From assembly GCA_902797685.1 (NCBI GenBank), contig CADBTQ010000012.1, forward strand, positions 8,753 through 72,752: 64,000 nt of DNA. Reading direction: 5' to 3'. The stretch comes from an uncultured Eubacteriales bacterium. GTDB taxonomy: Bacteria; Bacillota; Clostridia; Christensenellales; CAG-1252. The notes beneath the pieces were generated by a model, which was not told where the DNA came from, made no database searches, and saw nothing but the letters and a program-made list of their open reading frames with translations. Of this stretch, positions 40,570 through 59,359 are shown one piece after another. The number at the start of each line of letters is the position of its first letter. Within the stretch, counting starts at the first letter, position 1. A program made the translations under genes and the position numbers.

Positions 40570-40624
40570 AAGGTGTCACCGACGGTGACACCCATTGGGC
40601 GGTCGGTAATCGACCGCTTTTTTT
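40562..40624. terminator. Pair of back-to-back hairpins terminating the convergent operons
   Basis: GGTGTCACC-gac-GGTGACACC is preceded by AAAATAAAA and serves the minus strand. GCGGTCG-gtaat-CGACCGC is followed by TTTTTTT and serves the plus strand. Confidence 0.7.
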
Positions 40625-40627
40625 GTT

Positions 40628-42838
40628 TTAGCCTTTGGGACGGGTGGATTTGACCAAAGTCAACACGTTGTTGGGCTCTATCCGCTCGTAAGACGCCGAA
40701 GCGCAAAGGCTTTTGACGATGGTGATACCGAAGCCGCCCAAACCGCTGCCCGCCACCAACGATTGGTCTGCAACGTTGGGTTTGACGGCAAGAGGATCGA
40801 AAGGCGCACCGTTGGACGAGACGGTCAAGACCACGTTGTCGTCTTGCTCTTTGGCGTCGACTTCCACCGCAAAGCCTTTGCCCGTCTTTTCGTAGGACAC
40901 CAAATTGTTGAGCAGTTCGTCGAAGATGACGTCAAACTCCCCCAATACGCTTGCGTCCAAATGGGCAAACGCCGAGTTAAACGCATCGGTCACCTGTTCG
41001 ATCGCGCCGAAGTCGGGATCTTCGATGCGGACGTGATACGATTTGCCTTTTGGCTCCCCTTTGGGCATAAACAGCAACATGGTCACGTCGTCGAACGGCT
41101 CTTCCCCGCCCACGAAGGCGGATAGCGCTTCCCGCATGGCGGGTAACACGTCAAGTCCCTTGGCGTTGCACTCGCGGAGTACCTCGTTGATACGGTCGTA
41201 ACCGAACTCCTCGTTGAGCGAATTGATCCCCTCGTTGAGTCCGTCGGTGTACATAAAGAGGCGCTTGCCCCCGATCTTGCACTTGGACGCACGATAGGGG
41301 AAACCTTTGATCCCGCCCAACACGAAGTTGGGGGCCACTTCCATGCGCTCCACCCCCTCGCGGGAGAGGAGATAGGGTCTTTCGTGCCCCGCGCTACAAT
41401 AGGTCATCTCCCCACTATCGAGATCGATCACCCCCACGAAAGCGGTGACGAACAGACCCGCTTTGTTGTTGACCATCAACTCGTCGTTGACCGAGGTCAA
41501 CGCCGCGCCCAAGTCGTCGGTGGACTGCAACGCGTTTTTGATCAAGCCTTTGGCTTTCATCATAAACAAAGCGGCGGGCACCCCTTTGCCGGTAACGTCC
41601 GCAATGACTACCGCCAAGCGGTTGCCGTCCAAATAGAAGTAGTCGTAGAAGTCGCCGCCCACTTCCTTGGCGGGGGTGACGGACGCTTCCACTCGCGCCT
41701 TGTCGTCCTCAAAACAAGGAGAAGGCAAGGCTTCCATCTGTATCTCGGTGGCGATCGCCAATTCCGCGTTGACACGCTCTCTTTCCTTGGCGTCGCTCTC
41801 TATTTTGAGGGTGTAGCGGATGATCTCGTCCTCTAAGGTGACGAAAGACGAGGACAACAGCCCCAATTCGTCCAAGGCTTTGATTTGGGGATCGATGACT
41901 TCCAATTTGTCACCTTGGAGCACCTTGTCGGTAAAGGACTTGGTACTGTCGGTCAGTTTGGTGATGTTTTTGATCAGTGCGAAGTGCACCAAGAGCGCAT
42001 ACGCCGCGACCAAAAGCACGGTCACCACCGACAGAGCGATCAATTCCAAATAGAGGAAGGTATTGACGGACTGCACCAAAGACTTTTCGTCGTACTCGAT
42101 AAACACGGTGGCGACGTACTCGTTTTCAAACACACCTTCTTCGATCTCCACGTCGTGATACAGATCGAAATAACGCATAGTGTGTCCGCCAAAGACGAAC
42201 TCTTTGTCCCCCTTGTCGGGGTTGGCTCCGTCCGAGTCGGTCATTTGATAGTAGTCGCCCGCAAGGCGCGCGCCCTCGGCGGGATTGTCTTCCAAACGGT
42301 AGTTGGAGTCGATCAGATAGACATACCGATCCCGATCCTCGTCGCGCCAAGCGACGAAGGCGTAATGCACCCCTTGGGTGGCAAATGCGGTCGCCAACTG
42401 CGCCGAGGTTTGGTAATAGGTATTGCGCCATTGCAGACTATACATGGACAGACCGATACCGATACCGCCGCCGGGGTACAGCTGACCGTATTTTTTGCCG
42501 CTGTAATACACGTATTTCTTTTGGGTCAAAGACAGTCGGGCGAGTTCTTCGGGTTGGGATTGATACCGCGCCGCCAAGTACGCGTCCATGCCCTCGTCGG
42601 TCGGGTCTTCCGCGTATTGAGCGCGCACGTACGTGCCGACCGCCGAGATGTCTTCGAGACGTCCCACGTCCTCGAAATAGCTTTCAAACTCCGCCGTACA
42701 ATGCTCGAGCGACTGATTGAAATTGGAGCGCGTCCTCTCGCGGTAGATAAAAAAGCTAAACAGAAAAGCCGCGACCATCAACGCGACGGACAATCCCGCC
42801 CCGATGAGGATGATCTTGGCTCGTATGCCAAATCGCAT
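40628..42838 (-). CDS. Transmembrane sensor / HAMP / PP2C (SpoIIE-RsbU type) phosphatase fused to a C-terminal RsbW-like GHKL (HATPase) domain
   Basis: 736 aa: TM1, a ~250-aa extracytoplasmic region, then TM2. The PP2C motifs are GGDFYDYFYL...VVIADVTGKGVPAALFMM...LFMYTDGLNE...DDVTMLLF. The C-terminus has the N-box DELLNNLVSY and a GLGGFGITIV G-box. Confidence 0.85.
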   Translation of the reverse strand: MRFGIRAKIILIGAGLSVALMVAAFLFSFFIYRERTRSNFNQSLEHCTAEFESYFEDVGRLEDISAVGTYVRAQYAEDPTDEGMDAYLAARYQSQPEELARLSLTQKKYVYYSGKKYGQLYPGGGIGIGLSMYSLQWRNTYYQTSAQLATAFATQGVHYAFVAWRDEDRDRYVYLIDSNYRLEDNPAEGARLAGDYYQMTDSDGANPDKGDKEFVFGGHTMRYFDLYHDVEIEEGVFENEYVATVFIEYDEKSLVQSVNTFLYLELIALSVVTVLLVAAYALLVHFALIKNITKLTDSTKSFTDKVLQGDKLEVIDPQIKALDELGLLSSSFVTLEDEIIRYTLKIESDAKERERVNAELAIATEIQMEALPSPCFEDDKARVEASVTPAKEVGGDFYDYFYLDGNRLAVVIADVTGKGVPAALFMMKAKGLIKNALQSTDDLGAALTSVNDELMVNNKAGLFVTAFVGVIDLDSGEMTYCSAGHERPYLLSREGVERMEVAPNFVLGGIKGFPYRASKCKIGGKRLFMYTDGLNEGINSLNEEFGYDRINEVLRECNAKGLDVLPAMREALSAFVGGEEPFDDVTMLLFMPKGEPKGKSYHVRIEDPDFGAIEQVTDAFNSAFAHLDASVLGEFDVIFDELLNNLVSYEKTGKGFAVEVDAKEQDDNVVLTVSSNGAPFDPLAVKPNVADQSLVAGSGLGGFGITIVKSLCASASYERIEPNNVLTLVKSTRPKG

Positions 42839-42848
42839 AGCCTTCTCC

Positions 42849-43145
42849 TTATTTGACGGTGAGCACGTTGATAAAGCCGGTCACCCCGAAGATCTCGCGC
42901 ACCACGGCGTTGATGTGGTGGATCTCCATCTCTTTGCCGGCGTCGTCCAACTCGCGCTTGAGCGCCAACAGCACCCGAAGTCCCGCCGAGGAGATGTATT
43001 CCACCTCGGAAAAGTCCAAGACGACCTTGTTTTCGGTGATGGTCTCGCTCTTGATGGCTTGATCAAACTGCGCCGAGGTGACGGTGTCCAATCTGCCGAT
43101 GATTTTGACGTTAAACTCTTGACCGTGTTCAAATCTGACTTCCAT
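42849..43145 (-). CDS. STAS-domain anti-sigma-factor-antagonist-like protein (RsbV/SpoIIAA family)
   Basis: 98 aa. LDFSEVEYISSAGLRVLLAL contains the conserved phospho-acceptor Ser context. Confidence 0.9.
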   Translation of the reverse strand: MEVRFEHGQEFNVKIIGRLDTVTSAQFDQAIKSETITENKVVLDFSEVEYISSAGLRVLLALKRELDDAGKEMEIHHINAVVREIFGVTGFINVLTVK

Positions 43146-44901
43146 TTTTTTGTTCTCCTAACTTGATTTTGAATACCGTATTATTGAGGTTGAGTACCCT
43201 CATATAATTCATTTCGTCTGCCAACCCCTCGATCAAGGCGATGCCGCCCGTGAGGTACTGTTCGTCCTGCTCGTACTCGTACTTAGTGGGGTCGAAAGGC
43301 ATGCCGTCGTCACGGATACGAAGGAGCATTTCCTCCGCCCCTATTTTGAGATTGACGTCTACGAAGTGGGCGGCTTGCCGCTTGTAACCGTAGTGCACGA
43401 TATTGGCGACCATCTCCTCGCAAGCCAAGCCGACCACCTGTGCGTTGCGGTTGTCCACCCCGTGGGACAACGCGAAATCGACCACGTCTTTGGAGACGAC
43501 CGCCGCGTTCTCTTCCCTGTTTTCGACCGAGATGTCAAAGGTATTGACGTCGTCTTTTTCCAACATGAACAGTCCGTGATATTGCTTGTGCTTGGCATTG
43601 TAGATCAGCACGAACGCGTACGTCACGATAATGACCGCCACCTCGGTGACCACCCGTGCCAGAGCAAAGCCGAACATACCGTTGGTTTTGAGTAACACCA
43701 AAGTCAACGGAATGATAAACACCGCTTCCCGCAAGATGACCGCCACGATAGCGGGCAGGTTTTTGCCGATGGCGGGATAATAGTTGGTCGAAAACTTGTT
43801 GATCTCCAAGGGGATCGCCGCAATCAGGTAGATGCGCAAGATGTACTCCACTTGTCCGAGAGAGAGGCCCGTCCCCTTAAAGCCGAACAAAGAGGCGTAG
43901 GCACGGGGCCATATCATAATGAGGGCGGTCAGGGCGGCGGTCACCGCGATATTGATCCAATAGATACGACTGACCACCGATTTGAGGGAGTAAAAATCCC
44001 TCTCCCCATGCAGCACCCCGCACACGTTGGGGATAAGTCCCAATATACCGCCCGAAAAGAGGTCGAACACAAAGATCAAGTTGCTCACCAAACCAAAGAT
44101 GATCAGATCCACCTCGGCGGTGATCATGCGGCTGAACACCACGTTGATGACGAAAGTCTGCACCGCAAGGAGCAAAAAAGTCAACGCGGTGGGCAGTGAC
44201 GCCTTGACAGCCGCGCCAAACTCCTTGGCAGCCCCTTTGAGGTTGAAGGTAAACTTGAGCATCCTCTTTTTGGAGCGGGCATAAAAGATGACGGTGACAA
44301 GCCCTACCGCATAGCCGAAGGGCGTAGACAAAGCGGCGCCGTACGCCCCCATCGAAAACACCTTGATAAACAAGATCTCCGCGCCCACCTTGACGGCGTT
44401 GGCGAGGATATAAAAGATAGAAGACAGGCGGGGATTGTTGTCGGTGGCGATAAAGGTCGCCAGCATCATGGCAAGCATGAGCACCGGGTCGGTCGCCATG
44501 TACACCAAGATATATTGGTAGGACTCCTCCACCAAACTCTCGGCAAACAGCCCCGCCAAGGGGCGCGCCACGAAGGGAGAGAGGATGGCGAACACCGCCG
44601 ATACCGCCGTCCCCCATATCAGACACGCCGAAAACACCTTGTTGGCGGCGACGAGATTGCGCTTGCCCAACAAGTTGGCGATGGCGATGGAGCCGCCCGC
44701 CGCCAAGGCAAAGCCGGGGATCTGTATGACGTACAAGACGGGCATGACCAAAGAGTCGGCGGTAAGCGAGTCCGATCCGATCATGTTGCCGATGAGGATG
44801 CCGTCTAATAGCGACCCAAACTGCATGGCAAAGATCATCAGCACCGACGGGAGCAGATATTGATAAAACTTTTTGTTGATCAGCTTGGCGTTGCGTTGCA
44901 T
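43129..44901 (-). CDS. MATE-family efflux transporter fused to a C-terminal RsbW/SpoIIAB-like GHKL kinase domain
   Basis: Start trimmed to ATG 44901 (TAATG overlap with the NRPS stop). The N-terminal ~445 aa is a 12-TM MATE domain (FYQYLLPSVLMIFAMQFGSLLDGILIG). The last ~146 aa (43132-43569) carry the N-box EEMVANIVHYG, G1 RDDGMPFDP and G2 GGIALIEGL. Confidence 0.8.
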   Translation of the reverse strand: MQRNAKLINKKFYQYLLPSVLMIFAMQFGSLLDGILIGNMIGSDSLTADSLVMPVLYVIQIPGFALAAGGSIAIANLLGKRNLVAANKVFSACLIWGTAVSAVFAILSPFVARPLAGLFAESLVEESYQYILVYMATDPVLMLAMMLATFIATDNNPRLSSIFYILANAVKVGAEILFIKVFSMGAYGAALSTPFGYAVGLVTVIFYARSKKRMLKFTFNLKGAAKEFGAAVKASLPTALTFLLLAVQTFVINVVFSRMITAEVDLIIFGLVSNLIFVFDLFSGGILGLIPNVCGVLHGERDFYSLKSVVSRIYWINIAVTAALTALIMIWPRAYASLFGFKGTGLSLGQVEYILRIYLIAAIPLEINKFSTNYYPAIGKNLPAIVAVILREAVFIIPLTLVLLKTNGMFGFALARVVTEVAVIIVTYAFVLIYNAKHKQYHGLFMLEKDDVNTFDISVENREENAAVVSKDVVDFALSHGVDNRNAQVVGLACEEMVANIVHYGYKRQAAHFVDVNLKIGAEEMLLRIRDDGMPFDPTKYEYEQDEQYLTGGIALIEGLADEMNYMRVLNLNNTVFKIKLGEQKNGSQI

Positions 44902-47900
44902 TAGATGTCGCTCCTTGTAAAGAAGTTGAGTGAATCGAGCGAGTTGATCGCGTTGCGCAAATACTGCTCGTCGGTAATGGGCCACTTGTAGCCCAAGTGA
45001 TACAGCGCTTTGACCGTAAACTGGTTGTCGGACAGGATAAACGAGTGGGTGTGCGCGTCGGAAGAGGCGTAGTTGAGCAGAGAGGACACCAACATATTTT
45101 TGCTGTCGTCCGCCATCATCTCGCGCATCGCCTCGTCAAAGCGAGCGTCCGAGACGACCTCGATATCGAAGCCCAACTCGTTCATGACCGCGACGATGTC
45201 GCCCATCTGCACCATGTGGGAGTTAGCGGCGTGGAACACGGTAAACTTGGAGTCGGTCTGAGACAACAACAGCACCACTTTCGCCACCTCGTCGATAGGG
45301 GTAAAGTCGACGGCAACGTCCATCGACCCCACCGGGAACTTGTGCAGCGTAGCGTACCCTTTGAGGTCGCGCATAAAGCCGTTGGTGATGGAGTTGGCTT
45401 GGAACTCGCCGTCGCTTTGCCGGCTCATGAGGTTGCCCACGCGGATGACCTTGCCGTCCAAGCCTTCGTCCACTCCTTCCAGTATCGCCTTTTCGGCGTT
45501 GAACTTGGAGTGCACGTACTTGTTGGAGATGTCCTGTCCAAAGTCGAGCATATCTTCCCTCATGCGGAAAGACTCGTCAAACTTGCCGTCCACGTTCTCG
45601 CCCGCGACCGACAGAGTGGAGATCTGCACCAATCTGACGCCCCTCTCTTTGGCGATGCCGATCAGGTTTTGCACCCCGCCCACGTTGACCCGCTCGATGC
45701 TGTCGTCCACGGCAAAGTGCTTGACCAAGGCGGCGCAGTTGATGATGGTATCGAACTCCACCTCTTTGAGTTTGGCGCCAAGATCGGGATCGGTCACGTC
45801 CGAATCCACGATGGTGACGTATTGTTCGAGCTTGTCTTCCAAGGGCGAATCGAAGTAATAGGCAAGCATACCCGTCAGTCTATCTTTGGCGTTGAGGCGG
45901 GAAGAGCGTGCCAAGGCGACCGTATGCACACCTTGGTCCAATAATTCTTTGAGGATATGGATGCCCAAAAATCCCGTCACGCCCGTGACGAGCACCTTGC
46001 CCAAGGGACGGCTGAAGTCCACGTCGTCCACGTATTCGGGACGATTGTAACCCATGGAGCCGACCACCACTTGGGGTTTGTCCTCCTCTTTGGCGGTCTC
46101 CCCCGACTTGGAGAGGATATGGCGTTCCAGATCCAATACGGTGGAATACTCAAACACGTCTTGGTAGGCGATAGGCAGGTTTTGTTGCAGCGCCAACATG
46201 GCGATCTTAGAGGCCGACAGCGACGTGCCGCCGAGGTCGAAAAAGTCCTCGTCTACGCCCACTTGTTTGACCCCCAACGCCTTGGCGAAGATGCCCACCA
46301 GTTGCTCCTGAAGCCTGGTGGTCGCCCCCTTGACGGGTCCTTTGTTTTGTTGGGTAAACTCCCCTTCGGGCAGGGCTTTCTTGTCGATCTTGCCGCTGGC
46401 GGTAAGGGGCATTTTGTCCAACTGCATCAACACCTTGGGGATCATGTAGGGGGTCAACGACTTGGACATATGCGCGATCAAATCGTTTTTGTCCACCGTG
46501 GAAGTGGCGGTATAGTACGCCGCGAGATAGTCCCCGTCGGTGGCGTTGGTCTTGACCACGATGATAGAGCGGGATACGGAGGGATAGGAGTTGAGCACCT
46601 TTTCGATCTCGTCCAACTCCACCCGCAAGCCTCTCAACTTGACTTGGTTGTCGAGCCTGCCGAAAAACTCCACGTTGCCCTCGGCGTTGTAGCGAGCCAA
46701 ATCGCCGCTGCGGTAGGCGCGCTTGCCGTCCACCGTGATAAACTTTTCGCGGGTCTTGTCTTCCATACCGAGGTAGCCGATACCCACGCACTCGCCTGCG
46801 ATGGTCAAGTCGCCGATGGCGCCGATAGGCAGGATATGCCCCGCTTGATCCAAGATATACAAAGCGGTGTTGGCAAGGGGTTTGCCGATGGTGACGTACT
46901 TATCTTCCACCTTGTGATAAGTGCAGGTGATGGTGGTCTCGGTGGGACCGTAACCGTTGTAGATGGCGGCGTGTACCCCAAGCGAACGCAATTTGGCGCA
47001 CAATTCCTGCGGCACCGCTTCCGCCCCCATATCCAACGCCTCGAACTGTTTGAGCGCGTCCACAAACTCCTTGGAGTCGATCACATTGGACACGAACGAG
47101 GGAGTCATAAACATCAGGTTGACCCCTTCCGCCTTGAGCGTTTTGGCGAGCAACAAGGGGTTTTCGATCTCCTCTTCGGTGGCGATCACGGCGGTATAGC
47201 CGTGGGATAGGGGCACGCACTCCTCCTGCAAGGACGCGTCAAACGCAAACGACGCAAACGAGCAAGACACCGCGCCGCCCTTGATACCGCGGTACAAGGC
47301 GGTACCGCGATTGGTGCCGTCCAATACGTAGTTGACGAGGTTGCGATGGGAGATCATCACCCCTTTGGGTTTGCCGGTAGAGCCCGACGTGTAGATGATA
47401 TAGCACAGCGAATCCTGCGGGATAGCGAGGTCGGGATTGGCGACCTTGTCGCTCTTTTGCGCCTCTTCCAACAACACGACCTCAAGACCGCTCTTGGCGA
47501 TCAGCTCTTGCTTTTGCTCGGCGATCTCCCCGATCGTCACGAGGTATTTTGCCGCCGAATCCTCGGCGATATACTCGATACGCTCGTCGGGGTACTTGGG
47601 ATCCACGGGCACGAAAGCACCGCCCGACTTGACGATACCCTGCCTTACCACGTAAGCGTCCGCGACGCGAGGCATCATCATCATGACCTTGTCCCCGATC
47701 TTGACGCCTGCGTCGATCAAGGCGTGCGCCACCTTGTTGGCGCGCTCGTTGAGATCCTTATAGGTGTATCGACCCCCTCTGCCCACCACGGCAAGGTGAT
47801 CGGGGTTGAGGCGGGCTTGTTTTTCCACTAACTGATTGAAAGACACGTCGGGAATGGGCTCGAAGGTCGAGTTGAACTCGGCGTACATCTCTCTGTCTTT

Positions 47901-50900: not shown

Positions 50901-52112
50901 ATCCTCTTCGGTGACCAAGTCCACTTGTTGCAACAGATCGCGGTGCAAAAACTCCTCGAGCACTTGGTCGTACATCGCCGCAAAGTGGCGCAGGGTGCTC
51001 TCCTCGTAGAGGTCGGAGCGGTACTCCACCCACATCTCGAAACTATCGCCCGTGCGGTGCAACTCGATCGCCAAATTGCCCTTGCCGTCACGTCTTACCA
51101 GTTGCTCGACGGGTAAGGTCTTACCGCCCAAGGTCGTATGATAAAAAGAATCCCCTTGATAAGCGAACATCACCCCGCAATTGACGCCGAGATCTTGGCT
51201 CAACGCCGAGAAGGGGTACAGCAAGTGTCGTACGCTGTCGGACAACTGCTTACTCGCGCCTTTGACGTAATCTTCAACCGTCTCGACCGTTTGAAGATAC
51301 AAAGGAAACGTCTTGACGAACATACCCATACTCGACTGTGTATCGGGGTTGCGCCCGTTGGACACGGTCAAAAAGAGGGCTTTGTCGTCCATGTTGATCT
51401 TGGAAAGAAGATACCCGAACGCCGCCGCGAAATAGGACGAGGTCTTGGCTTGCCAAAGGGTGGTCTTACCCTTGACCGCTTGGTTGGAAACGAACAGTTT
51501 AGTCTTGAAAAAGCCGTAGGCGGGCGCGCCGTCGTTGCGGTCGAAGATCAAGCCCGAATCGGTCTCGGGGTCGGCGACCGTCTTTTCCCAATACGCCTTG
51601 TCCTCTGCCAAGCGGGGAGACGACAACAGTTCGGCTTCCTGCCTCGCCCACACGTTGGCGTCCACCGTTTCGGGAGAAAGGGGTCTGCCCTCGTAAGCGG
51701 CGGTCACCTCGTCGATAAAGAGTTTGAGCGAGGTGCCGTCCATCAGGATATGGTGGAAGTCAAACACGAAGTAATACTCCCCCGCCACCTTGTGCAACGA
51801 CAGGCGGTAGAAGTGACTACCTATCATCTCGAAAGGAGGGGACTCGAGATGGAGATCATTCTCTTCGATCAAGGGGATCTCGATCTCCCGAGGCTCCACG
51901 TGTTTGAGGATAGCGCCGTCTTCTCCCTGCGTCAACACGGTATTGAGATAGGGGTGCGCCTCAAACACCGACTTGACCCCTTTGACGAAGCGGTCGACGT
52001 CGAGGTCTGTGCCCAAATCGACGTAATTGGTCAAATTGTAAGCGTCCGTGGGGGTAAGACAGGACGCAAAAATCCCTTCTTCGGTCTTGGATAACGGATA
52101 GTAGTTCTTCAT
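44901..52112 (-). CDS. Bimodular non-ribosomal peptide synthetase, C-A-T-C-A-T-R (terminal thioester reductase)
   Basis: 2403 aa. C domains have HHILMDG (aa 120-126) and HHILCDG (1119-1125). A domains have LYTSGSTGVPKG (569-579) and IYTSGSTGKPKG (1574-1584), NAYGPTE/NGYGPTE, YKTGD/YRSGD and GRxDxQVKxRGxRVEL. The T-domain Ser residues are in AGLTS(949) and GGTS(1964). The R domain has TGVTGFLG (2043-2050) and YVHSK (2199-2203). Confidence 0.95.
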   Translation of the reverse strand: MKNYYPLSKTEEGIFASCLTPTDAYNLTNYVDLGTDLDVDRFVKGVKSVFEAHPYLNTVLTQGEDGAILKHVEPREIEIPLIEENDLHLESPPFEMIGSHFYRLSLHKVAGEYYFVFDFHHILMDGTSLKLFIDEVTAAYEGRPLSPETVDANVWARQEAELLSSPRLAEDKAYWEKTVADPETDSGLIFDRNDGAPAYGFFKTKLFVSNQAVKGKTTLWQAKTSSYFAAAFGYLLSKINMDDKALFLTVSNGRNPDTQSSMGMFVKTFPLYLQTVETVEDYVKGASKQLSDSVRHLLYPFSALSQDLGVNCGVMFAYQGDSFYHTTLGGKTLPVEQLVRRDGKGNLAIELHRTGDSFEMWVEYRSDLYEESTLRHFAAMYDQVLEEFLHRDLLQQVDLVTEEDKRLLDGFNQADLSAIDPALTVLDHFAEMVKRFPSRPAVVFKDKSYTYSQVDEKSDRIACYLQSKGIGREDVVSVLIRKSEYIVIASLGVIKSGAAYQPLDPSYPEERLEFMVKDAASKAIIRDPSLGELLPAFEGEVLYTDEIGSLPQGKPTGKPRPQDLFIMLYTSGSTGVPKGVMLEHGNINAFCSFHAQAHQVDETARVAAYASYGFDADMMDLYPALTHGGCVYVIPDEMRLDLIKLGDYFNDNGITHAILTTQVGRQFVEMIESKTLRYLTVGGEKLVPIDPPKGYALYNAYGPTEGTVYCSSQLVDRKYYRVPIGKVNCCYKSYILDKNGRRLPPLAQGELYISGPQVARGYLNREEENAKAFLTNGFDPDPAFRRLYKTGDVVRYLLDGTLDFIGRKDGQVKIRGFRVELSEVEEVIRQFEGIADATVKDFTDPSGIKFICAYVVSDHPVDIDALNAFIASRKPPYMVPAYTMQIDKIPLNQNQKVNKRALPVPQVRAAEKVLPEGEDETAIYDILKGIIGTDSFGVTTDVYEAGLTSVTSIRFAIMLSKRFGKDVDNGMLKQYPTVRALAKALAGAEEQKTYEILSEYPISKTQEGIFVECAAHPNTTNYNIPILFRLPKGMDIARLKKALSEVIDAHSYVKTTLRMNEDGDILACRSDLAPVIREYDVPEAVPADLVRPFGLIASPLYRAEIYHAHDGDYLFLDFHHILCDGTSEAILLADLGKAYQGQKVEAETFTGYEVALKEKEDRTEDKLAAAKAFYADYLKDMDGEYVVKKDMKVKEQSRLCSHDYFLTLDVEGLKKFVSEHKLTLNAYFNYAFGFTLSKYLYKSDSLYTTIYDGRTSSRTANTVSMLVKTLPVYMAYKEEGKVLDGLTKMKEDLVKLQNSVYSFAEVVADFDVPADVMFAYQGDSFTFDHIGDAKVESVLIESDTPKSAFSVDVFLEKGVYRAHFEWDESCYNQDSMDSFARLFELVLGELSRKESIKDIDTLPAKDREMYAEFNSTFEPIPDVSFNQLVEKQARLNPDHLAVVGRGGRYTYKDLNERANKVAHALIDAGVKIGDKVMMMMPRVADAYVVRQGIVKSGGAFVPVDPKYPDERIEYIAEDSAAKYLVTIGEIAEQKQELIAKSGLEVVLLEEAQKSDKVANPDLAIPQDSLCYIIYTSGSTGKPKGVMISHRNLVNYVLDGTNRGTALYRGIKGGAVSCSFASFAFDASLQEECVPLSHGYTAVIATEEEIENPLLLAKTLKAEGVNLMFMTPSFVSNVIDSKEFVDALKQFEALDMGAEAVPQELCAKLRSLGVHAAIYNGYGPTETTITCTYHKVEDKYVTIGKPLANTALYILDQAGHILPIGAIGDLTIAGECVGIGYLGMEDKTREKFITVDGKRAYRSGDLARYNAEGNVEFFGRLDNQVKLRGLRVELDEIEKVLNSYPSVSRSIIVVKTNATDGDYLAAYYTATSTVDKNDLIAHMSKSLTPYMIPKVLMQLDKMPLTASGKIDKKALPEGEFTQQNKGPVKGATTRLQEQLVGIFAKALGVKQVGVDEDFFDLGGTSLSASKIAMLALQQNLPIAYQDVFEYSTVLDLERHILSKSGETAKEEDKPQVVVGSMGYNRPEYVDDVDFSRPLGKVLVTGVTGFLGIHILKELLDQGVHTVALARSSRLNAKDRLTGMLAYYFDSPLEDKLEQYVTIVDSDVTDPDLGAKLKEVEFDTIINCAALVKHFAVDDSIERVNVGGVQNLIGIAKERGVRLVQISTLSVAGENVDGKFDESFRMREDMLDFGQDISNKYVHSKFNAEKAILEGVDEGLDGKVIRVGNLMSRQSDGEFQANSITNGFMRDLKGYATLHKFPVGSMDVAVDFTPIDEVAKVVLLLSQTDSKFTVFHAANSHMVQMGDIVAVMNELGFDIEVVSDARFDEAMREMMADDSKNMLVSSLLNYASSDAHTHSFILSDNQFTVKALYHLGYKWPITDEQYLRNAINSLDSLNFFTRSDI

Positions 52113-52180
52113 GCCCGGGTTCTCCTTGATTAACGGCGGTAAGCCACCGGCTTGAGGGGGCGATACCCTCTCTTGTCAGA

Positions 52181-53353
52181 TTAAAAAGCCAGCGAATCGA
52201 CCGAAGCGATCAACTTAGCCAATTCCTTTTTGTAGAATGCGATCTCCTCCGCGTGGTCTTCCCCGCGGTGCAAAGTGCGGCGGACGGCGCGTTGCAACAG
52301 GCGGGTGTACCCGATGACTTGCGCCTTTTCGGCATACCCTTTGAGGGTCTCCTCGTCGGTGGTGTCGAAGTATTTTTGCAAAGTCTTGTGCCACACTTGA
52401 ATGGACTCGTCCGCGGTGATACCCAAGAAGTCGCCCGCGTGATCCATGTCAAGCGAGTGGAATCCGATATAGGCGTTGAACACCGAGCCGAACTCGAACA
52501 CGGGGTTGCCCACGCACAAAGTATCCATATCGATCAAGATGGCTTCGCCGTTTTGGACCATCACGTTTTTGAGGTGATAGTCCCCGTGGATGAGGTGATG
52601 GGACTCGGGTACGGCTTTGACCAGTTGCTCCAATTTGGCGCCCACGTCCTCGTCCAAGTAGGTCTTGGCGATGTTGACCCACCTAAGCGCCAATTCCTTG
52701 ATATTGGGGATGTCTTCGTCTTCCACCTCGATGGAGTGGATCTTTTTGAGCAGATCCACGTAGATATCCACGTAATGATCCAATTTGTCGGGTTCTTGGG
52801 TGATGCACGCCGCCAAGGATTTGGCGTTGAGCAACTCGAACACGGTGCCGTACAACTTGCCCACTTGCACGATGTCGTAGGAGATGGCGGTGTTGACGCC
52901 CAGCACGAACGCCTTTTTGGCGAGCGAGCGCTCCCTTTGGATGTCCTCGAAGCTGTCGGGGTTGGCGTAGACCTTGACGATGGTCTCGGGATCGATGCGA
53001 TACACCTTGCCGTTGGCGCCCTCGCCGATGACCTCGCAACCGTCCACCGATATCTTTTTGTACGCCTTTTCCACGGGCATCAACTCGGTAAAGCCGGTCA
53101 TGTCGAAGATCTCGTACACGTCGGTGGTGACGTTGACGAGTTTGAGGCTGCTATACGACTTGCGCAGACGCAAGACAACTCGTAGTCCCGCCGACGAGAT
53201 GTACTCCAGATCGGCAAGATCCAGCACCAGTTGGTCAAACGACTGACCGCTCAGCACCCGGTTGATCTCCTGCGCCACCGCTTCGGCGTTGTTGGAGTCG
53301 ATACGACCGTCCAAATAGATGACCAATTTACTTCCGATAAACTCATTTCTCAT
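52181..53353 (-). CDS. STAS domain fused to a protein-kinase-like / aminoglycoside-phosphotransferase-fold kinase domain
   Basis: 390 aa. The N-terminal STAS is LDLADLEYISSAGLRVVLRL. It is followed by the Gly loop IGEGANGKVYRI..VKVY, the catalytic HGDYHLKNVMV and the metal-binding LIDMD. Confidence 0.8.
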   Translation of the reverse strand: MRNEFIGSKLVIYLDGRIDSNNAEAVAQEINRVLSGQSFDQLVLDLADLEYISSAGLRVVLRLRKSYSSLKLVNVTTDVYEIFDMTGFTELMPVEKAYKKISVDGCEVIGEGANGKVYRIDPETIVKVYANPDSFEDIQRERSLAKKAFVLGVNTAISYDIVQVGKLYGTVFELLNAKSLAACITQEPDKLDHYVDIYVDLLKKIHSIEVEDEDIPNIKELALRWVNIAKTYLDEDVGAKLEQLVKAVPESHHLIHGDYHLKNVMVQNGEAILIDMDTLCVGNPVFEFGSVFNAYIGFHSLDMDHAGDFLGITADESIQVWHKTLQKYFDTTDEETLKGYAEKAQVIGYTRLLQRAVRRTLHRGEDHAEEIAFYKKELAKLIASVDSLAF

Positions 53354-53919
53354 TGTGGTTCCCCCTTAAATACCAAGTAAACTAATTGTTTGTATTCCAA
53401 ATATGCGAACGTGTCGCCCAATTCGCTCTCCAGTAAGCCCAATATCGAGCGATAGTACCATTCGTGTTGGGCTTTGCGCCTCTCGTTAAACGCCTCGAAC
53501 ACGCGGTTGCCGATGAGCACGTAATCTTTGGAAAGCGCACGCATGTTGCTCAATTTGTCGGACAGCCACACGATCTTTTCTTCTCTGTTGGCTTTTGCCA
53601 ACTCGTCCAAGGATTCCTGCTTGCGTATCTTCCAAGTGACGGAAGCGGGCTGGTCTTTGCGCTTGTTTTCGGTCTCGCTCTTAACTAGGGCGAGCACCCT
53701 CTTGCCAAACAACTCTTCCACTTCCTCCTCCGTGGCGTCGGTGTCTTCGAGTACGTCGTGCAGAAGCGCCGCGATGATGACGTCCTCGTCGTCTGTCAGC
53801 GAAGCCGCCACCGCCGCCGCTTCCATGGGATGCAGGATATACGGCACGTGCGACAACTTGCGTATCTGCCCCTCGTGCATTCGAGCGGCATAGTCGATCG
53901 CTAATTGTAGTCTCGTCAT
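53350..53919 (-). CDS. HD-domain protein of the RelA/SpoT (p)ppGpp-hydrolase type (small alarmone hydrolase-like)
   Basis: The track ORF is trimmed to ATG 53919 (ATGA overlap with the upstream stop). YILHPMEAA...ALLHDVLEDTDAT matches the H...HD...ED signature of SpoT-type hydrolases. 189 aa. Confidence 0.75.
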   Translation of the reverse strand: MTRLQLAIDYAARMHEGQIRKLSHVPYILHPMEAAAVAASLTDDEDVIIAALLHDVLEDTDATEEEVEELFGKRVLALVKSETENKRKDQPASVTWKIRKQESLDELAKANREEKIVWLSDKLSNMRALSKDYVLIGNRVFEAFNERRKAQHEWYYRSILGLLESELGDTFAYLEYKQLVYLVFKGEPQ

Positions 53920-55949
53920 AGTTTTTTCTCCAATATCAATATATTTTGCCCGTCGACGTAGTCGTAGCGCACGTCGTCGACCAAGCGTTTGGTCATATAT
54001 ACCCCCAATCCGCCCTCTTTGCGCTCCTCGGCGCTCAAGGTCACGTCGGGCTCTTTGGCGGCGAGAGGGTTGTAGGGTTTGCCGTGGTCTTGGAAGGTGA
54101 TAGACAGCTTGTCCTCTATCCACTGCAGCTTGACAACGACGTCGCCCGCTTGCCGCCCCAGATAGGCGTAACTCGCGACGTTGACGAAGATCTCCTCCAC
54201 CGCGACCCCCAACTGCATCAGCCACTTGGGGCTATCCGCTTTTTGAGAGGCAAACCCCTCCACAAAAGCGTTCACGTCGTCCAACTCTTTGGGATCGGCG
54301 GCAAACGTTCTCGTCTCACCGCCGCCTCCTTGATAACTCATACAAAGCATAGTCATATCGTCAAATTGGGGCGCTTCGCCCACAAACGCGCCCACTCGCG
54401 CTACAACGTCCTCGACAGTGGCTTGGGGAGTATTGCCCGCCAACGTCTTCAACGCCTCGAGGGTGGCGTCCAATCCAAACATCTTTTGCTCGCCGTCGGT
54501 GGCTTCGGGCACCCCGTCGGTGTAGAGGAACAACTTGTCTCCCCGCTTCATGGTAAACTCGAAGTTGGTGTATTTGACCCCCTCCATCGCGCCCACGATC
54601 ACCCCGCGCTTGGCTTTGACGAACTCGGCGCTCCCGTCGGGATGGGTCAGGATGGGTTGGTCGTGTCCCGCGTTGGAAGCGATCACTTTGCCGGTGGATA
54701 TCTCCACTATTCCCAACCATATCGTCACGAACATCTCGGCTTGGTTGTGCGAGCAGATGCGGTCGTTGACGAACGCCATTGCGTCCGCGGGACTTAATCC
54801 GCTCGTCACCCCCTCGTTGAGAAGGATCTTGGTGACCATCATAAACAGAGCCGCGGGCACGCCCTTACCCGACACGTCGCCGATCATCACGGCAAGGTGA
54901 TCGGGATCGACCAAGAAAAAGTCGTAGAAGTCGCCTCCCACTTGCTTGGCGGGATTCATGATCCCGTACAAGTCGAACTCCTTGCGATCGGGAAACGCGG
55001 GGAACCGGGAGGGCAACGACCCTTCCTGTATTTGCTTGGCGATATCCAACTCCGCCCCGATCTTTTGTTTTTCGGCGATGGCGTCGGACAAGTGGTCGAT
55101 GTACTCCAGAGTGGCGGTCTCCATCGTCGCCATGGCTTGCGCCAAAGCGGAGATCTCGGAGATACGGCTGATATTGCCATCCAAAGGCACGTCGGGAGCG
55201 CTGTTGTGGGTGGCAAAGCGCTGCGCTTCGTCCATGATGGTGCGGATGGGCTTGACGAATTGATCTTTGGCGATGAACACGTAAGCGGTGATGACGACCA
55301 ACGCCAACAGCGCCGTCGTCACGCTGATGATGATCGCGTAACTATTGCCCCACTTGTGCAACAAGTCCATCGACTGCTGTACGCAGATGATCCCCGCCAC
55401 CGTGCCGTCCTGCCGCTTTAGCGGGATAAGGCTGTTGATATGCGCGGGCGCCGAAGCGGTGCGTTCTCTCGTGACGGTCGCGCGCTCCAACTTTCCCTCC
55501 ATCAGGTCTTGGTACACGCCCCAGTAGTCGGACGACTTTTGCTCCCAGACCGAGCCCAGTTCCCACGGGGTGTAGCCCGACCTATCGCTCGGACAGTTGA
55601 TGATAGAGGTGTATTTGTGATAGTCGTACTCTTCCAAGGGGCGGATGATATAGACGATGTACACCCCTTGATTTTCGCAAAACTGCTTAAGCAGCGCGGT
55701 CTTTTGGGCATGCTCGTCCAATTTGTCGCCCGCAAGATACGCGTCCGCGTCCTCTCCGGTGACGAATTGGGTCACTGTGGTCGCGGTGGCAAAAGCGGAC
55801 TCGTTGTAGCGGGTGGTCAAGGTATCGTTGAACTTGCTGTACCCGATCGCCGCCGTGATCACGCCGAAAATCACCAACAGGATCGTCGTCGACACCACGA
55901 TATTGAAAACGAGCGAATTATGTATGCGCTTTGCCTTTGATTTTGCCAT
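53916..55949 (-). CDS. Transmembrane sensor (Cache-like ectodomain) / HAMP / PP2C phosphatase fused to a C-terminal RsbW-like GHKL domain
   Basis: 677 aa. The PP2C motifs are GGDFYDFFLV...VMIGDVSGKGVPAALFMM...LFLYTDGVPE...DDMTMLCM. The C-terminus has the N-box EEIFVNVASYA, QDHGKPYNP and EGGLGVYMTKRL. Confidence 0.85.
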   Translation of the reverse strand: MAKSKAKRIHNSLVFNIVVSTTILLVIFGVITAAIGYSKFNDTLTTRYNESAFATATTVTQFVTGEDADAYLAGDKLDEHAQKTALLKQFCENQGVYIVYIIRPLEEYDYHKYTSIINCPSDRSGYTPWELGSVWEQKSSDYWGVYQDLMEGKLERATVTRERTASAPAHINSLIPLKRQDGTVAGIICVQQSMDLLHKWGNSYAIIISVTTALLALVVITAYVFIAKDQFVKPIRTIMDEAQRFATHNSAPDVPLDGNISRISEISALAQAMATMETATLEYIDHLSDAIAEKQKIGAELDIAKQIQEGSLPSRFPAFPDRKEFDLYGIMNPAKQVGGDFYDFFLVDPDHLAVMIGDVSGKGVPAALFMMVTKILLNEGVTSGLSPADAMAFVNDRICSHNQAEMFVTIWLGIVEISTGKVIASNAGHDQPILTHPDGSAEFVKAKRGVIVGAMEGVKYTNFEFTMKRGDKLFLYTDGVPEATDGEQKMFGLDATLEALKTLAGNTPQATVEDVVARVGAFVGEAPQFDDMTMLCMSYQGGGGETRTFAADPKELDDVNAFVEGFASQKADSPKWLMQLGVAVEEIFVNVASYAYLGRQAGDVVVKLQWIEDKLSITFQDHGKPYNPLAAKEPDVTLSAEERKEGGLGVYMTKRLVDDVRYDYVDGQNILILEKKL

Positions 55950-55952
55950 AAC

Positions 55953-57503
55953 TTAGCCTCCCAATTTGCTGATGATCTCGGGCAGACGGAGCACAAGTTG
56001 ATAAAAGCCCTCGAGGTAGCAGATGACAAAGCCGACCATACCCACGGTGGGGATGATCATATCGATAGACGAAGGCTTGTAGGTGCGTGTGTACGAAAAC
56101 AGCATGATGAACGGTATCACCAAAAGCAGCACGAAAGACTGTCCGAACCCGAGCCGTTGGGCGAGATCCGCTCCCGACACCACCCCCTCGATGACGAGCG
56201 GACTCGTTTTTTCGATGACGGCGGCAACGACAAAATACAGTATGATATCCAATATGGCGACGACCAACAAAAAGACGGACGCCGAAATAGAGAAATGCAA
56301 CGAATTGAGGTTGGTCTTAAGAAAGGCTTGATATTCCTCTCTGCTTTTGCCTCGGTGCAAAAACACCCTCTCGCGGTTTTTGATAAAGAACGACAACCCG
56401 ATAAAAGTCAAAAAGGTCAAAGGCGCCTTGGTGGTCAGGAAGGGGAACACGTAAACGGGCACGTTGAGTTCGGGGTGCAATACGCACAGGTATTTGGCGA
56501 CGAACGAACCCACCTCGTACAATACGGGCAAAATGGCAAGCAGGCGGAATAGTACCAGTTTTTTGCCCACGAACACTTTTTTGGGAGTGTAATTGACAAA
56601 AAAGGTAAACAGCGTGCAGACGAACAAATCGACGAAAATGTTGAACGCCATGTATCCCTTCCCGGAGAAAGACTTGAACAGAGTGCTTGCCGTCGCCGCC
56701 GCGTCCGTTCCCTCCGAGCCGTCGGCCATCATTTTGATAATGCCCAAAAGGTATCGCTGGTACAACAGCATAAACGCGCCGAACACGAGAAGCGCCATAA
56801 ACGCGTAAGTCGCCAACAATCGCTGATAACCGTTTTTGGCGTTGATGATGACCGCGAAATTCGCCATCAAAAACAAAGGGACGGACAAGGTGCCGAATAT
56901 CTGCAAAAAGACGACCAAGCCGCTAAACTTCATGAGTTTGGCGTCGAAGCGCATGCCCAAAGACAAGATCAAAGCGACCTGGGTGCCGATAATGGCAAGC
57001 CAGGCGAAAACGCGAAGATAACGATAAGACAACGGTCCGCGGTAGCGGATATCGTTTGCCAACGTGACCTCGTCGATCCGACGACGGCGTTTCCCTTTGC
57101 GTTTTTTCCCTTTGCGCCGGGTTTCGCCGTCCGCGGTCGTGTCGGCGGGGACTTCTCCCTCTTGCGTTACGACCGACTCGACGAGCTCCTCCTCTTGCAC
57201 GCCGTTTGCGTCGTCCGAAGTATCGGCTGCCCCGTCCGTCTCGGACGCCGCATCGGACTCGGCGGGCAACTCCTTTGGGGTTTGCTCAATGAAGGCAGCT
57301 CCCTCGCCGTCTTGCGCAACCGCCGTCTCTTCATTCCCCGACGCTTCGTGATCCTGTCGGGAGTCGATCGAGGCGACCGAGACTGCATTTTGAGGGGTCA
57401 CATCTTCTTCCTTATCCACAAAAACATCCTCGGCGGGAGCCAAGGGTGCTTTTGGGGTGTCGCTTGTTTGAGCGGGATCGACCCGTTCCGATTTACGTTT
57501 CAT
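55953..57503 (-). CDS. Polytopic membrane protein with a ~140-aa acidic disordered N-terminus and a polybasic patch; unknown function
   Basis: 516 aa with RRKGKKRKGKRRRR before the first of ~9-10 hydrophobic helices. Its stop is 3 nt from the next start, whose RBS (GGGAGG) lies inside its last codons. Confidence 0.7.
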   Translation of the reverse strand: MKRKSERVDPAQTSDTPKAPLAPAEDVFVDKEEDVTPQNAVSVASIDSRQDHEASGNEETAVAQDGEGAAFIEQTPKELPAESDAASETDGAADTSDDANGVQEEELVESVVTQEGEVPADTTADGETRRKGKKRKGKRRRRIDEVTLANDIRYRGPLSYRYLRVFAWLAIIGTQVALILSLGMRFDAKLMKFSGLVVFLQIFGTLSVPLFLMANFAVIINAKNGYQRLLATYAFMALLVFGAFMLLYQRYLLGIIKMMADGSEGTDAAATASTLFKSFSGKGYMAFNIFVDLFVCTLFTFFVNYTPKKVFVGKKLVLFRLLAILPVLYEVGSFVAKYLCVLHPELNVPVYVFPFLTTKAPLTFLTFIGLSFFIKNRERVFLHRGKSREEYQAFLKTNLNSLHFSISASVFLLVVAILDIILYFVVAAVIEKTSPLVIEGVVSGADLAQRLGFGQSFVLLLVIPFIMLFSYTRTYKPSSIDMIIPTVGMVGFVICYLEGFYQLVLRLPEIISKLGG

Positions 57504-57554: not shown

Positions 57555-58628
57555 TCAGGAATTGGTTTTGCGGACGTTTGCGCCGTAAATGGTCGTCCAG
57601 TCGTCGCGCATGGAGATGACGTGGAAGCCCTCGGCTTTCCATTGCTCGCCGAGCTTTTCGGCTTTGACGGTATTGCCGTAATCGCGCGCTTCGTCGTTGG
57701 CGATCAACATAAACACCGCGGCTTTGTAGCGGTTGCGGGTCACGGTGTAGCGGTGCATGCTGACGTCGCCCGAACTGTTGCCGAAAGACAACACGGGTTG
57801 CTTGTCGATCTCTTGCACGATCTGCAACACTTTGTTGGTTTTGAGGTTTTTGACAAGCAAGGTATCGGTGCGCAACACCTCGTCGCCACGGGCGAATTGA
57901 TAATCGAGACTGTCCGCATCCCCTTGATCGGTCGCGCGGAGTTTGACGTCCATACCGATGATCTGCTCGTTGGGAATGTGGCAGGGCTCGCTTGCCAAGG
58001 CGCGGCAGATAAAGCGATCCGAACCCGAAACGATGTAGGTCTTAAACCCGTTTTGTTGCAAGTAGTCGATGACCTCGAGCATGGGCTGATAAAACGCCGA
58101 GCCGTAGGTCATGCCCGCAAACCCCTCGGGAGTCTTTTTGAGGAAGTCGGCAACGTAAGCCTCGAAGTCCTTGACGCTCATCCCCTCAAAAGCTTTGGCT
58201 TGCGCCAAGGCGTGTTGCATCGCCATATCCGAGGGATAGCTCCAATCGTGCTTGCTGTCGCGAATGAGTTGCGCCACTCTCTTCACCTCTTCGGGAGCCT
58301 CGTAGTTAGGATCGTCCAACCCGCGGTACTCGAGGAGCAAATACTCCAAATAGGTGGGGAACAATTCCCCGTACAGGGTGCCGTCCATATCGAACACGGC
58401 GATACGATCTTCCACGGGGATAAAGGTGTCCGCATTGTTGTCTGTCACCGATGCGACGTATTGTTTGAGTGCGGAGAGAGAGGAACAATCGTTCCAATAA
58501 TGAAAGCGATACTCGCTCTCCTCTTGTTTGCACCCCACGAAGGCGCAAGACGCCAAGACGACCGCCAGTACCAAAACGGCGATCACGAGGGAAGTCAATT
58601 TGCTTGCGTTGATTTTGCGATCATTCAT
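57555..58628 (-). CDS. HAD-superfamily (subfamily IB-like) hydrolase, probable lipoprotein
   Basis: Start trimmed to ATG 58628 after GAGGTG. The signal/lipobox is VLAVVLASCAFVGC, HAD motif I is VFDMDGTL, and later motifs are IVSGSD and FGNSSGD. Confidence 0.75.
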   Translation of the reverse strand: MNDRKINASKLTSLVIAVLVLAVVLASCAFVGCKQEESEYRFHYWNDCSSLSALKQYVASVTDNNADTFIPVEDRIAVFDMDGTLYGELFPTYLEYLLLEYRGLDDPNYEAPEEVKRVAQLIRDSKHDWSYPSDMAMQHALAQAKAFEGMSVKDFEAYVADFLKKTPEGFAGMTYGSAFYQPMLEVIDYLQQNGFKTYIVSGSDRFICRALASEPCHIPNEQIIGMDVKLRATDQGDADSLDYQFARGDEVLRTDTLLVKNLKTNKVLQIVQEIDKQPVLSFGNSSGDVSMHRYTVTRNRYKAAVFMLIANDEARDYGNTVKAEKLGEQWKAEGFHVISMRDDWTTIYGANVRKTNS

Positions 58629-58681
58629 AAAACACCTCGACATAAGGACGCCCGCTGATCAAGCGGAGCGTCGAATATTCG

Positions 58682-59332: not shown

Positions 59333-59359
59333 AGTCTATCTCCTTTTGTTGTCAAGGAT

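Follow-up and report, generated by a model that had tools for sequence, protein, structure and literature searches.

An anti-sigma-like kinase domain built into a MATE exporter of a conserved nonribosomal peptide cassette suggests a partner switch that works without a sigma factor

SpoIIAB/RsbW-type domains bind the unphosphorylated form of a STAS protein and phosphorylate it, and PP2C phosphatases reverse this step. Which partner such a switch controls when no sigma factor gene is linked to it is the question raised by an operon of an uncultured Eubacteriales bacterium (GTDB lineage Bacteria; Bacillota; Clostridia; Christensenellales; CAG-1252). The operon lies on contig CADBTQ010000012.1 of assembly GCA_902797685.1, within the 64,000 nucleotides from position 8,753 to position 72,752 of the forward strand; this whole stretch is called the window. 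Its eight minus-strand genes, g1 to g8, place a nonribosomal peptide synthetase (NRPS, g5) and an exporter (g6) among proteins with partner-switch domains. On balance, we find it probable that g5 to g8 (unit B, also called the cassette below) form a sigma-independent partner switch in which an anti-sigma-like kinase is built into the exporter and gates either export itself or the coupling between the NRPS and the exporter.

Direct reading of the window confirmed the eight open reading frames (ORFs) in their frames, start and stop codons and junctions, and a Shine-Dalgarno-like motif was found 5' of each of the eight start codons. The layout given in a first-pass annotation, which had been made from the letters of the window, was correct throughout: the genes are co-directional and tightly packed, with ATGA overlaps at 53916-53919 and 53350-53353, a TAATG overlap at 44899-44903, a 17-nucleotide (nt) overlap of g6 and g7 at 43129-43145, gaps of 3 and 10 nt at remaining junctions, and one longer spacer of 68 nt between g4 and g5. 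Domains were called with Pfam profiles, while equivalog tests used the curated cut-offs of NCBIfam. Nearly all of the domain assignments of the first-pass annotation were upheld by these calls, including two sensor proteins with transmembrane (TM) helices and a PP2C domain, each ending in an RsbW/SpoIIAB-like GHKL module (g2, SpoIIE/PP2C 4e-49 and HATPase_c_2 1e-21; g8, SpoIIE/PP2C 2e-39 and HATPase_c_2 6e-11), a third GHKL module fused to a MATE exporter (g6, MatE 4e-21 in two stretches and HATPase_c_2 1e-14), a SpoT-type HD hydrolase (g3, through its HD_4 match) and an NRPS of the order C-A-T-C-A-T-R. The last of these agreed both in the order of its Pfam domains and in its active-site motifs, which are HHxxxDG in both condensation (C) domains, NxYGPTE in two copies, and GVTGFLG and YVHSK in the reductase (R) domain. 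The HAMP domains ascribed to the two sensors did not hold up, as the match in g2 was below threshold (E 0.008; 16.9 bits, with the cut-off at 25) and none was detected by Pfam in g8. Scores of window proteins stayed far below the NCBIfam equivalog cut-offs for RsbW (43.6 against 145), SpoIIAB (20-22 against 135), SiaA (64 and 55 against 700) and SpoIIE (38 and 27 against 491).

Table 1. Coordinates of the features discussed. Positions are those of the window, except in the last two rows, which refer to separate Methanobrevibacter contigs (aa, amino acids).
Feature	Coordinates	Strand	Description	Evidence or remark
g1	55953-57503	-	516-aa polytopic membrane protein	Hydropathy; no Pfam or NCBIfam match
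g2	53916-55949	-	Membrane sensor (2 TM helices, ~170-aa outer loop) with PP2C and canonical RsbW-like GHKL	First gene of module A
g3	53350-53919	-	RelA/SpoT-type HD phosphohydrolase, small-alarmone-hydrolase-like	HD_4 3e-21, 76 bits against a cut-off of 27
g4	52181-53353	-	STAS with APH/protein-kinase-like kinase; module A output	STAS 5e-16, APH 4e-18
Spacer, module A/NRPS	52113-52180		68 nt	No terminator-like hairpin
g5	44901-52112	-	Bimodular NRPS, C-A-T-C-A-T-R	Pfam: Condensation x2, AMP-binding x2, PP-binding x2, NAD_binding_4
g6	43129-44901	-	MATE exporter (aa 1 to ~440) with cytoplasmic SpoIIAB/RsbW-type GHKL (aa ~441-590; 43132-43581)	Pfam
g7	42849-43145	-	Single-domain STAS	STAS 1e-14; TIGR00377 above cut-off
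g8	40628-42838	-	Membrane sensor (2 TM helices, ~238-aa outer loop) with PP2C and a GHKL lacking the G1-box Asp	
Back-to-back intrinsic terminator hairpins	40571-40619		Close the operon and convergent plus-strand methyltransferase genes	
HAD-like hydrolase	57555-58643	-	N-terminal membrane anchor (hydrophobic aa 19-37)	Pfam HAD 2e-8; 51 nt 5' of g1
216-aa membrane protein	58682-59332	-		No family
Zn_peptidase_2	59360-60247	-		
437-aa ORF	58841-60151	+	Antisense to the 216-aa membrane protein and Zn_peptidase_2; probably spurious	No family match
SpoIIE	17562-19820	+	Genuine sporulation phosphatase	SpoIIE_N and PP2C
1810-aa protein	24211-29640	-	Probably a large surface protein	MBG_2 and CopC-like matches
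L087	1-9302		Methanobrevibacter contig; R-terminated NRPS, MFS, MATE-GHKL and phosphopantetheinyl transferase genes clustered	GC content 26%
L089	775-3968		Methanobrevibacter sp. OttesenSCG-928-K11; APH-STAS fusion and MATE-GHKL	Genes overlap by 4 nt

The identity of g6 was examined from both ends of the protein. Two MatE repeats and about 12 TM helices were found by Pfam, by hydropathy and by the span of a TIGR00797 match covering aa 20-404, the score of which (72.5 bits) is below the curated cut-off of 147.4. The C-terminal 150 residues gave no match in the PDB by single-sequence phmmer; when searched as a profile, their first PDB matches were SpoIIAB (E 4e-4) and RsbW (1e-3). An AlphaFold2 model of this domain (pLDDT 80, pTM 0.77) was compared by Foldseek, and SpoIIAB, RsbW and UsfX of Mycobacterium tuberculosis were the best matches (E 1e-8 to 1e-6, TM scores 0.66-0.84), with the catalytic domains of histidine kinases ranking below them. 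Some family members are also named 'Na+-driven multidrug efflux pump/anti-sigma regulatory factor' in IMG. The termini of MATE proteins, including the C-terminus, are cytoplasmic. The N-box EE..N and the G1 box DDG were intact in all 77 primary copies of the fusion, whether a STAS gene was nearby or not, and E495, E496 and N500 together with D531 and G533 of the G1 box were invariant also in archaeal, proteobacterial and Fibrobacterota-type members of 23-29% identity, so that the domain is predicted from this intact site to be competent to bind ATP. A second MATE-GHKL paralogue follows directly after the STAS gene in the Lachnospiraceae cassettes L056, L057, L058, L063, L066 and L071 (at ~12.7-15.4 kb of each locus). 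In this second paralogue the N-box Asn and the G1 Asp are both gone (e.g., EEM and YSG), which suggests a pseudokinase acting as the receiver on a second pump.

The gene that follows the exporter encodes the STAS protein g7, in which Ser53 aligns with the phospho-acceptor Ser58 of SpoIIAA. All 55 cassette STAS proteins compared have the surrounding YISSAGLR unchanged, and so do 120 STAS-APH sequences (g4 and 119 homologues). The first-pass annotation had pointed to two STAS domains, in g4 and g7, sharing EYISSAGLRV; both are indeed STAS domains, but the shared motif is a signature of the whole family and is therefore no sign of a special relation between these two proteins. An alignment of 44 sensor phosphatase sequences (g8, g2 and 42 relatives) shows the metal-binding motifs of PP2C (GGDFYD, DVxGKG, TDG and DD) kept in all or nearly all of its members. 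The GHKL motifs EE..N, DHG and GGLG are present in g2 by direct reading, and g8 retains the N-box and G2 and reads S-N-G in the G1 box, where the adenine-binding Asp was found in 7 of the 38 aligned sequences that cover the region and was otherwise mostly replaced by S, N or T. Because this Asp is missing, the GHKL of g8 more likely serves as a pseudokinase for STAS docking or regulation, and from the states of these catalytic sites the exporter GHKL is the sole kinase-competent GHKL that is always in the core cassette. The outer domains of g2 and g8 are unrelated to each other, which is consistent with that part of the earlier proposal in which two different extracytoplasmic signals were expected.

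Conservation of the neighborhood was assessed by scanning one genome per species with the MATE-GHKL fusion, whose close homologues in rumen and gut metagenomes number in the hundreds; the resulting 80 loci were annotated with the window proteins and by all-against-all clustering. Of 73 informative loci, 70 have an NRPS gene immediately 5' of the fusion; a STAS gene lies immediately 3' of it in 45 of 77, and both STAS and PP2C were present in 31 of the 42 loci for which both flanks were informative, across Clostridia, Bacilli and Negativicutes. The host labels of the loci include Christensenella and other Clostridia, Ruminococcus, Erysipelotrichaceae, Acholeplasmatales, Bacilli, Selenomonadaceae and Lachnospiraceae, the last with the cultured Petralouisia muris and Sporofaciens musculi. 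Gene order differs among these hosts: a free RsbW-like gene and a PP2C gene lie 5' of the NRPS in Ruminococcus and Selenomonadaceae, and in Lachnospiraceae the PP2C, a free RsbW-like protein and the second MATE paralogue come after. This conserved neighborhood excludes chance adjacency for g5-g8, and the gene-neighborhood search thus bears out that NRPS, MATE-GHKL, STAS and PP2C-GHKL do not stand together by accident. The eight genes do not, however, form the one co-conserved set that had been envisaged, since they fall into two units, of which only g5-g8 is co-conserved and g2-g4 is independent; the earlier interpretation holds in outline for four of the genes and went too far for an eight-gene network. 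Chance adjacency of the whole set was considered as well; it is rejected for g5-g8 and possible for g2-g4. Peptidase-C39-type ABC exporters (family F11) were seen within 10 kb of the cassette in L008, L012, L021, L028, L038 and L060, and LytS-type kinase/response-regulator pairs (families F12 and F6) in L010, L012, L028, L029 and L038, with a similar pair upstream in L093; these are possibly a transcriptional layer of control.

The distribution of the fusion was followed further with a profile hidden Markov model search of 1.84 billion representatives grouped into clusters of 50% identity. Nearly all of the best 150 clusters listed were near-full-length matches to the fusion, and the named carriers included Desulfobacteraceae, Zoogloeaceae, Chitinispirillales and two metagenome-assembled genomes (MAGs) of Methanobrevibacter. 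A C-A-T-C-A-T-R NRPS was found directly 5' of the fusion in Chitinispirillales (L090) and, with one ORF between, 5' of it on a Desulfobacteraceae-type contig (L091), whereas L092 carries a larger NRPS 3' of the fusion and L093 holds the full cassette. The pair of NRPS and MATE-GHKL alone recurs in Fibrobacterota, Desulfobacterota and Methanobrevibacter. On the 13.6-kb Methanobrevibacter contig L087 the NRPS fragment matched g5 with 740 bits, and neither STAS nor PP2C was detected there; in L089 the domain order of the APH-STAS fusion is reversed with respect to g4, and a weak condensation-domain fragment lies upstream. Archaeal names were absent among the best 120 matches of a Ruminococcus-type query, the archaeal members having come from the 50%-cluster search.

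No Sigma70 domain was found by Pfam in the window ORFs of at least 80 aa, in agreement with the earlier statement that the window holds no sigma-factor-like ORF. The relatives were searched by jackhmmer seeded with SigF, SigB, SigW and RpoE, and the search detected the positive control, a Pfam-annotated sigma gene of L082/L083. Across the 1.34 Mb of loci L002-L081 it returned one extracytoplasmic function (ECF) sigma factor; in 79 of the 80 loci it found no sigma factor in the 10 kb around the cassette, and it found none in any of the archaeal or other-phylum loci. To our knowledge, archaea, including Methanobrevibacter, are without sigma factors. Of the features that mark a partner switch, the STAS domain with its Ser, the HATPase_c_2 fold and PP2C were thus all found, and a linked sigma factor was not. 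The window itself encodes a genuine SpoIIE (Table 1), which places the host in a spore-forming lineage; the genes for SigF, SpoIIAA and SpoIIAB probably lie beyond the window.

The remaining part of the switch machinery, module A (g2-g3-g4), behaves differently from the cassette. The TM helices of g2 span aa 17-35 and 206-224, and g3 matches the N-terminal region of TIGR00691 (4e-25) and contains the HP...HD residues. The presumed output of module A, g4, matches TIGR00377 above the cut-off, and the Gly-rich loop, the Lys of VKVY, HGDYHxKN and LIDMD are invariant across the same 120 STAS-APH sequences; with 111 bits against a cut-off of 228 it is related to, and not a member of, the APH-like paralogous family TIGR02172. 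The STAS-APH architecture is very common, being shared by all of the best 120 matches, with at least 8000 scored candidates at E <= 1e-8. The closest homologues of g4, of 72% and 68% identity, belong to the same PP2C-GHKL/HD_4/STAS-APH trio, found at two chromosomal sites that are unrelated and have neither an NRPS nor a MATE-GHKL gene nearby. A g3-type HD gene stands between PP2C-GHKL and STAS-APH at the unrelated loci L082-L085. In the nearest informative relatives of the cassette (L002, L004 and L007) module A is absent 5' of the NRPS, and L003, L005 and L006 begin inside the NRPS and so are uninformative on this point. Because NRPS-free loci of the trio exist and the cassette relatives lack it, we regard module A as a self-standing partner switch with an enzymatic output, made up of a putatively STAS-regulated APH-like kinase and an HD hydrolase. 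A phosphopantetheinyl transferase (PPTase) of the family that accompanies the NRPS (F4, Pfam ACPS) lies within the cassette in 37 related loci, and directly 5' of the NRPS, the position that module A has in the window, in L002 and 18 others; no member of this family was found anywhere in the 64-kb window. As judged from these comparisons, module A is a widely distributed unit that in the window lineage is inserted 5' of the NRPS, where relatives carry the PPTase. In L021, L028 and L075, STAS-APH genes lie no more than 10 kb from the cassette, but three or four such cases among 80 loci come near the number expected by chance for a multi-copy family. Module A may thus be a second, separable input to the cassette or an unrelated neighbor. 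An independent assembly from another sample (L001) contains an identical g4 with partial ORFs that, judged by position, stand where g3 and the NRPS start would be; it is only consistent with a junction of module A and NRPS that is not an assembly artefact. A promoter scan returned sites no more numerous than in shuffled sequence, and therefore neither supports nor opposes an internal promoter 5' of the NRPS. As an uncharacterised partner switch whose output would be a kinase, the trio merits separate study.

For the cassette, we propose that an extracytoplasmic signal would set the phosphatase activity of g8, which would strip the phosphate from Ser53 of g7, and that the unphosphorylated STAS protein would then bind the exporter GHKL and alter export or the coupling of exporter and NRPS. 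The exporter's own GHKL would re-phosphorylate the STAS protein and so reset the switch, the GHKL of g8 would act as a docking pseudokinase, and the transporter (or the NRPS) would stand in for the sigma factor as the controlled partner. An anti-sigma-type kinase that is part of the exporter, and is better conserved than any other regulatory element of this NRPS family, makes the pump the most likely target of the switch. The first-pass annotation had placed the output at the post-translational level, on synthesis and/or export of the product, and in view of the real components, the lack of a linked sigma factor and the co-conservation this is judged the best reading. What appears to be new is the recognition of the anti-sigma-type kinase as a part of the exporter and as the most conserved regulatory element across phyla and domains. 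A bolder version, which we put forward tentatively and think rather less likely to be right than wrong, is that the exporter GHKL takes turns between binding the STAS protein and holding the NRPS (or keeping the MATE channel locked), so that an external signal acting through the PP2C sensor would physically connect the assembly line to the pump or disconnect it, and the reactive peptide aldehyde predicted as the product would be released only on cue; such a design would be ancient and mobile, spanning at least four bacterial phyla and methanogenic archaea.

Several observations weigh against a STAS-controlled exporter. The putative binding of STAS to the exporter GHKL is deduced from adjacency and homology. 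Neither STAS nor PP2C was found within 10 kb of the NRPS and MATE-GHKL genes in L090, L091, L092, L036/L037 and several Lachnospiraceae loci, and from such pairs it follows that the GHKL can work without a linked STAS protein or that its partner is encoded elsewhere. These pairs are the chief weakness of the proposal: the GHKL may have a more basic role in nucleotide-dependent gating or in NRPS docking, with STAS control added on. Both archaeal contigs are MAG bins, and the host genome encodes SpoIIE, so that sporulation sigma factors could in principle be targets.

These points lead to the alternatives. If the exporter GHKL were mainly a nucleotide-dependent coupling or gating domain, serving NRPS docking or ATP/ADP sensing, and STAS and PP2C were a later addition in Firmicutes, it would be understandable that NRPS and MATE-GHKL are the sole near-invariant pair (the 70 of 73 loci given above, and L087, L090, L091, L092 and L093) and that EE..N and DDG stay intact in several lineages in which no STAS or PP2C is nearby. 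The STAS gene, however, is usually the very next gene where it is present and is often translationally coupled, the known partners of the GHKL fold are STAS proteins and sigma factors, and a complete RsbU/V/W-like triad stands beside the fusion in Lachnospiraceae; we consider this explanation unlikely, though it deserves a hearing. The classical output would be a sigma factor encoded elsewhere in the genome, for which the GHKL of g6, g8 or g2 would be a membrane-tethered anti-sigma factor, the switch then controlling transcription of the cluster or of a regulon and not transport. All three GHKL modules belong to HATPase_c_2, the best structural matches of the exporter domain are true anti-sigma factors, the SpoIIE of the host makes it probable that SigF-type sigma factors are encoded elsewhere, and Leahy et al. 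suggested a role in 'regulating NRPS expression' for a comparable set of genes (PMC2812497). Against this stand the absence of sigma genes from the window and, in 79 of 80 loci, from the 10 kb around the cassette in a search whose positive control worked, the lack of a conserved DNA-binding gene in the cassette, and the movement of the cassette as a unit across classes and phyla and into the sigma-less Methanobrevibacter, so that we hold an unlinked sigma factor to be improbable.

The last alternative concerns the extent of the switch rather than its target. All eight genes could be one circuit, in which the STAS domain of g4 would also dock on the GHKL of the exporter or of g8, the APH-like kinase and the HD and HAD hydrolases would act on the NRPS product (e.g., on a phosphorylated, self-protected intermediate), and two signals would be integrated. 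The operon is tight and its 68-nt spacer has no terminator, the two sensors have unrelated outer domains, the HAD protein has a membrane anchor, STAS-APH genes lie within 10 kb of the cassette in the three loci named above, and the APH-STAS gene of L089 overlaps its MATE-GHKL gene. Yet the closest homologues of g4 sit in the same trio away from any NRPS or MATE-GHKL, the STAS-APH family is so common that three or four co-occurrences in 80 loci are near chance, and module A is missing from the nearest informative relatives of the cassette, which leaves a single circuit doubtful. The preferred reading is a sigma-independent switch of the cassette that acts through the exporter.

The nature of the exported compound was considered from the NRPS. 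From its domain order, g5 is predicted to release a reactive N-acyl dipeptide aldehyde, a small peptide of the protease-inhibitor type. The gut pyrazinone/dipeptide aldehyde clusters of Guo et al. (2017) reportedly have C-A-T-C-A-T-R synthetases and come from host-associated Clostridia, and the synthetase for ruminopeptin of Ruminococcus bromii (Schneider and Balskus, 2018) is likewise said to have this order. The adenylation (A) domain codes, hand-read on GrsA numbering, are DAMITGAVYK for A1 and DAQFDGGITK for A2; the Asp at position 299 of A2 might, with low confidence, point to a basic residue and an argininal-type aldehyde. Peptide aldehydes made by anaerobes of the gut and rumen strongly inhibit proteases of both hosts and microbes. 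Detection of such compounds in native strains has reportedly mostly failed, heterologous expression or chemical synthesis having been the only routes to them. Reductase-terminated NRPSs of the gut yield N-acyl dipeptide aldehydes that are protease inhibitors (PMC12327764, PMC8518294), and these clusters resemble g5 in domain order and reductive release.

The first-pass annotation had stated that no described cluster is organised in this way, which was too strong. In Methanobrevibacter ruminantium M1, Leahy et al. (2010; PMC2812497) described a similar neighborhood (mru0066-mru0071) around the NRPS mru0068, which consists of two C-A-T modules and ends in a reductase domain. On its flanks lie a MatE protein, an anti-sigma factor antagonist and a pair of serine phosphatases, for which the authors proposed roles in sensing, regulation and export; a separate M1 cluster contains a PPTase, a phosphatase, an antagonist and an anti-sigma kinase (PMC2812497). 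The mru0068 locus shares with unit B the two-module, reductase-ended NRPS, the phosphatases, the antagonist and MatE, but the report is one of annotation and does not describe a MatE-kinase fusion, conservation across phyla or the absence of sigma factors. The M1 protein mru0069 is a candidate carrier of a GHKL domain; two other Methanobrevibacter proteins do carry one.

The same three folds, PP2C, STAS with its Ser and a HATPase_c_2 kinase, make up the SpoIIE/SpoIIAA/SpoIIAB-sigmaF and RsbU/RsbV/RsbW-sigmaB switches of Bacillus; unlike these, the window has no linked sigma factor, and its kinase-like domains are fused to a MATE exporter and to phosphatases. Rv1364c of M. tuberculosis (PAS-PP2C-RsbW-STAS) joins PP2C and an RsbW-like domain as g2 and g8 do, and its structure 3KE6 was among the fold matches; it differs in being cytoplasmic, in having a STAS domain in the same chain and in its link to SigF control, whereas g2 and g8 are membrane sensors without STAS. 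Sigma-independent partner switches include SiaABCD of Pseudomonas aeruginosa, SypE/SypA of Vibrio fischeri and BtrU/V/W of Bordetella. SypE, like g2 and g8, unites kinase-like and PP2C domains, and BtrUVW governs a secretion process. The HenR module of Anabaena (PMC13555669) is a further sigma-independent switch, and switches of this kind with enzymes as targets are an accepted and growing class. In all of these systems STAS phosphorylation acts on a target other than a sigma factor, as is proposed for unit B. The targets in SiaABCD, Syp, Btr and HenR are a diguanylate cyclase, a polysaccharide locus, type III secretion and a glycosyltransferase, and none of the four is known to have a transporter-fused kinase domain or the setting of an NRPS cluster.

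Control of membrane transporters by STAS has precedents of another form. MlaB, together with MlaFE, is a STAS protein that modulates a membrane transporter. The C-terminal STAS domain of SulP/SLC26 proteins is a second example (STAS review, PMC8256260). In SLC26 and MlaB the STAS domain is permanently attached to the transporter, by fusion or by constitutive binding, and does not pass through a kinase/phosphatase cycle, while in unit B the transporter bears the kinase-like receptor and the STAS protein is free and phosphorylatable. Neither a full-text literature search nor a term search of this review yielded a link between partner switching and a MATE transporter or efflux, and the literature searched contained no description of the MATE-GHKL fusion or of its implication. 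If the proposed switch is correct, a transporter would be a new class of output for partner-switching signaling, and it would explain how a bacterial sigma-factor module functions once it has been transferred to archaea. The STAS phospho-site or the ligand of the sensor would then provide a handle by which silent clusters could be switched on, and the logic would extend to many clusters, as the fusion family is large (at least 150 clusters at 50% identity).

Upstream of module A, the N-terminus of g1 consists of ~145 aa that are acidic, of low complexity and disordered, ending KGKKRKGKRRRR, and is followed by ~8-9 TM helices; homologues of g1 were found only in L014 and L039, in each case directly 3' of a PP2C-GHKL gene. 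The co-directional block extends upstream of g1 by three further genes, encoding the HAD-like hydrolase, the 216-aa membrane protein and Zn_peptidase_2 (Table 1). Homologues of the HAD protein lie 5' of the NRPS in L013 (directly) and in L029 (with the PPTase gene between), which makes it a candidate accessory enzyme. Elsewhere the window contains a V-type ATPase operon, TrkAH, a glycosidase, ClpB and methyltransferases.

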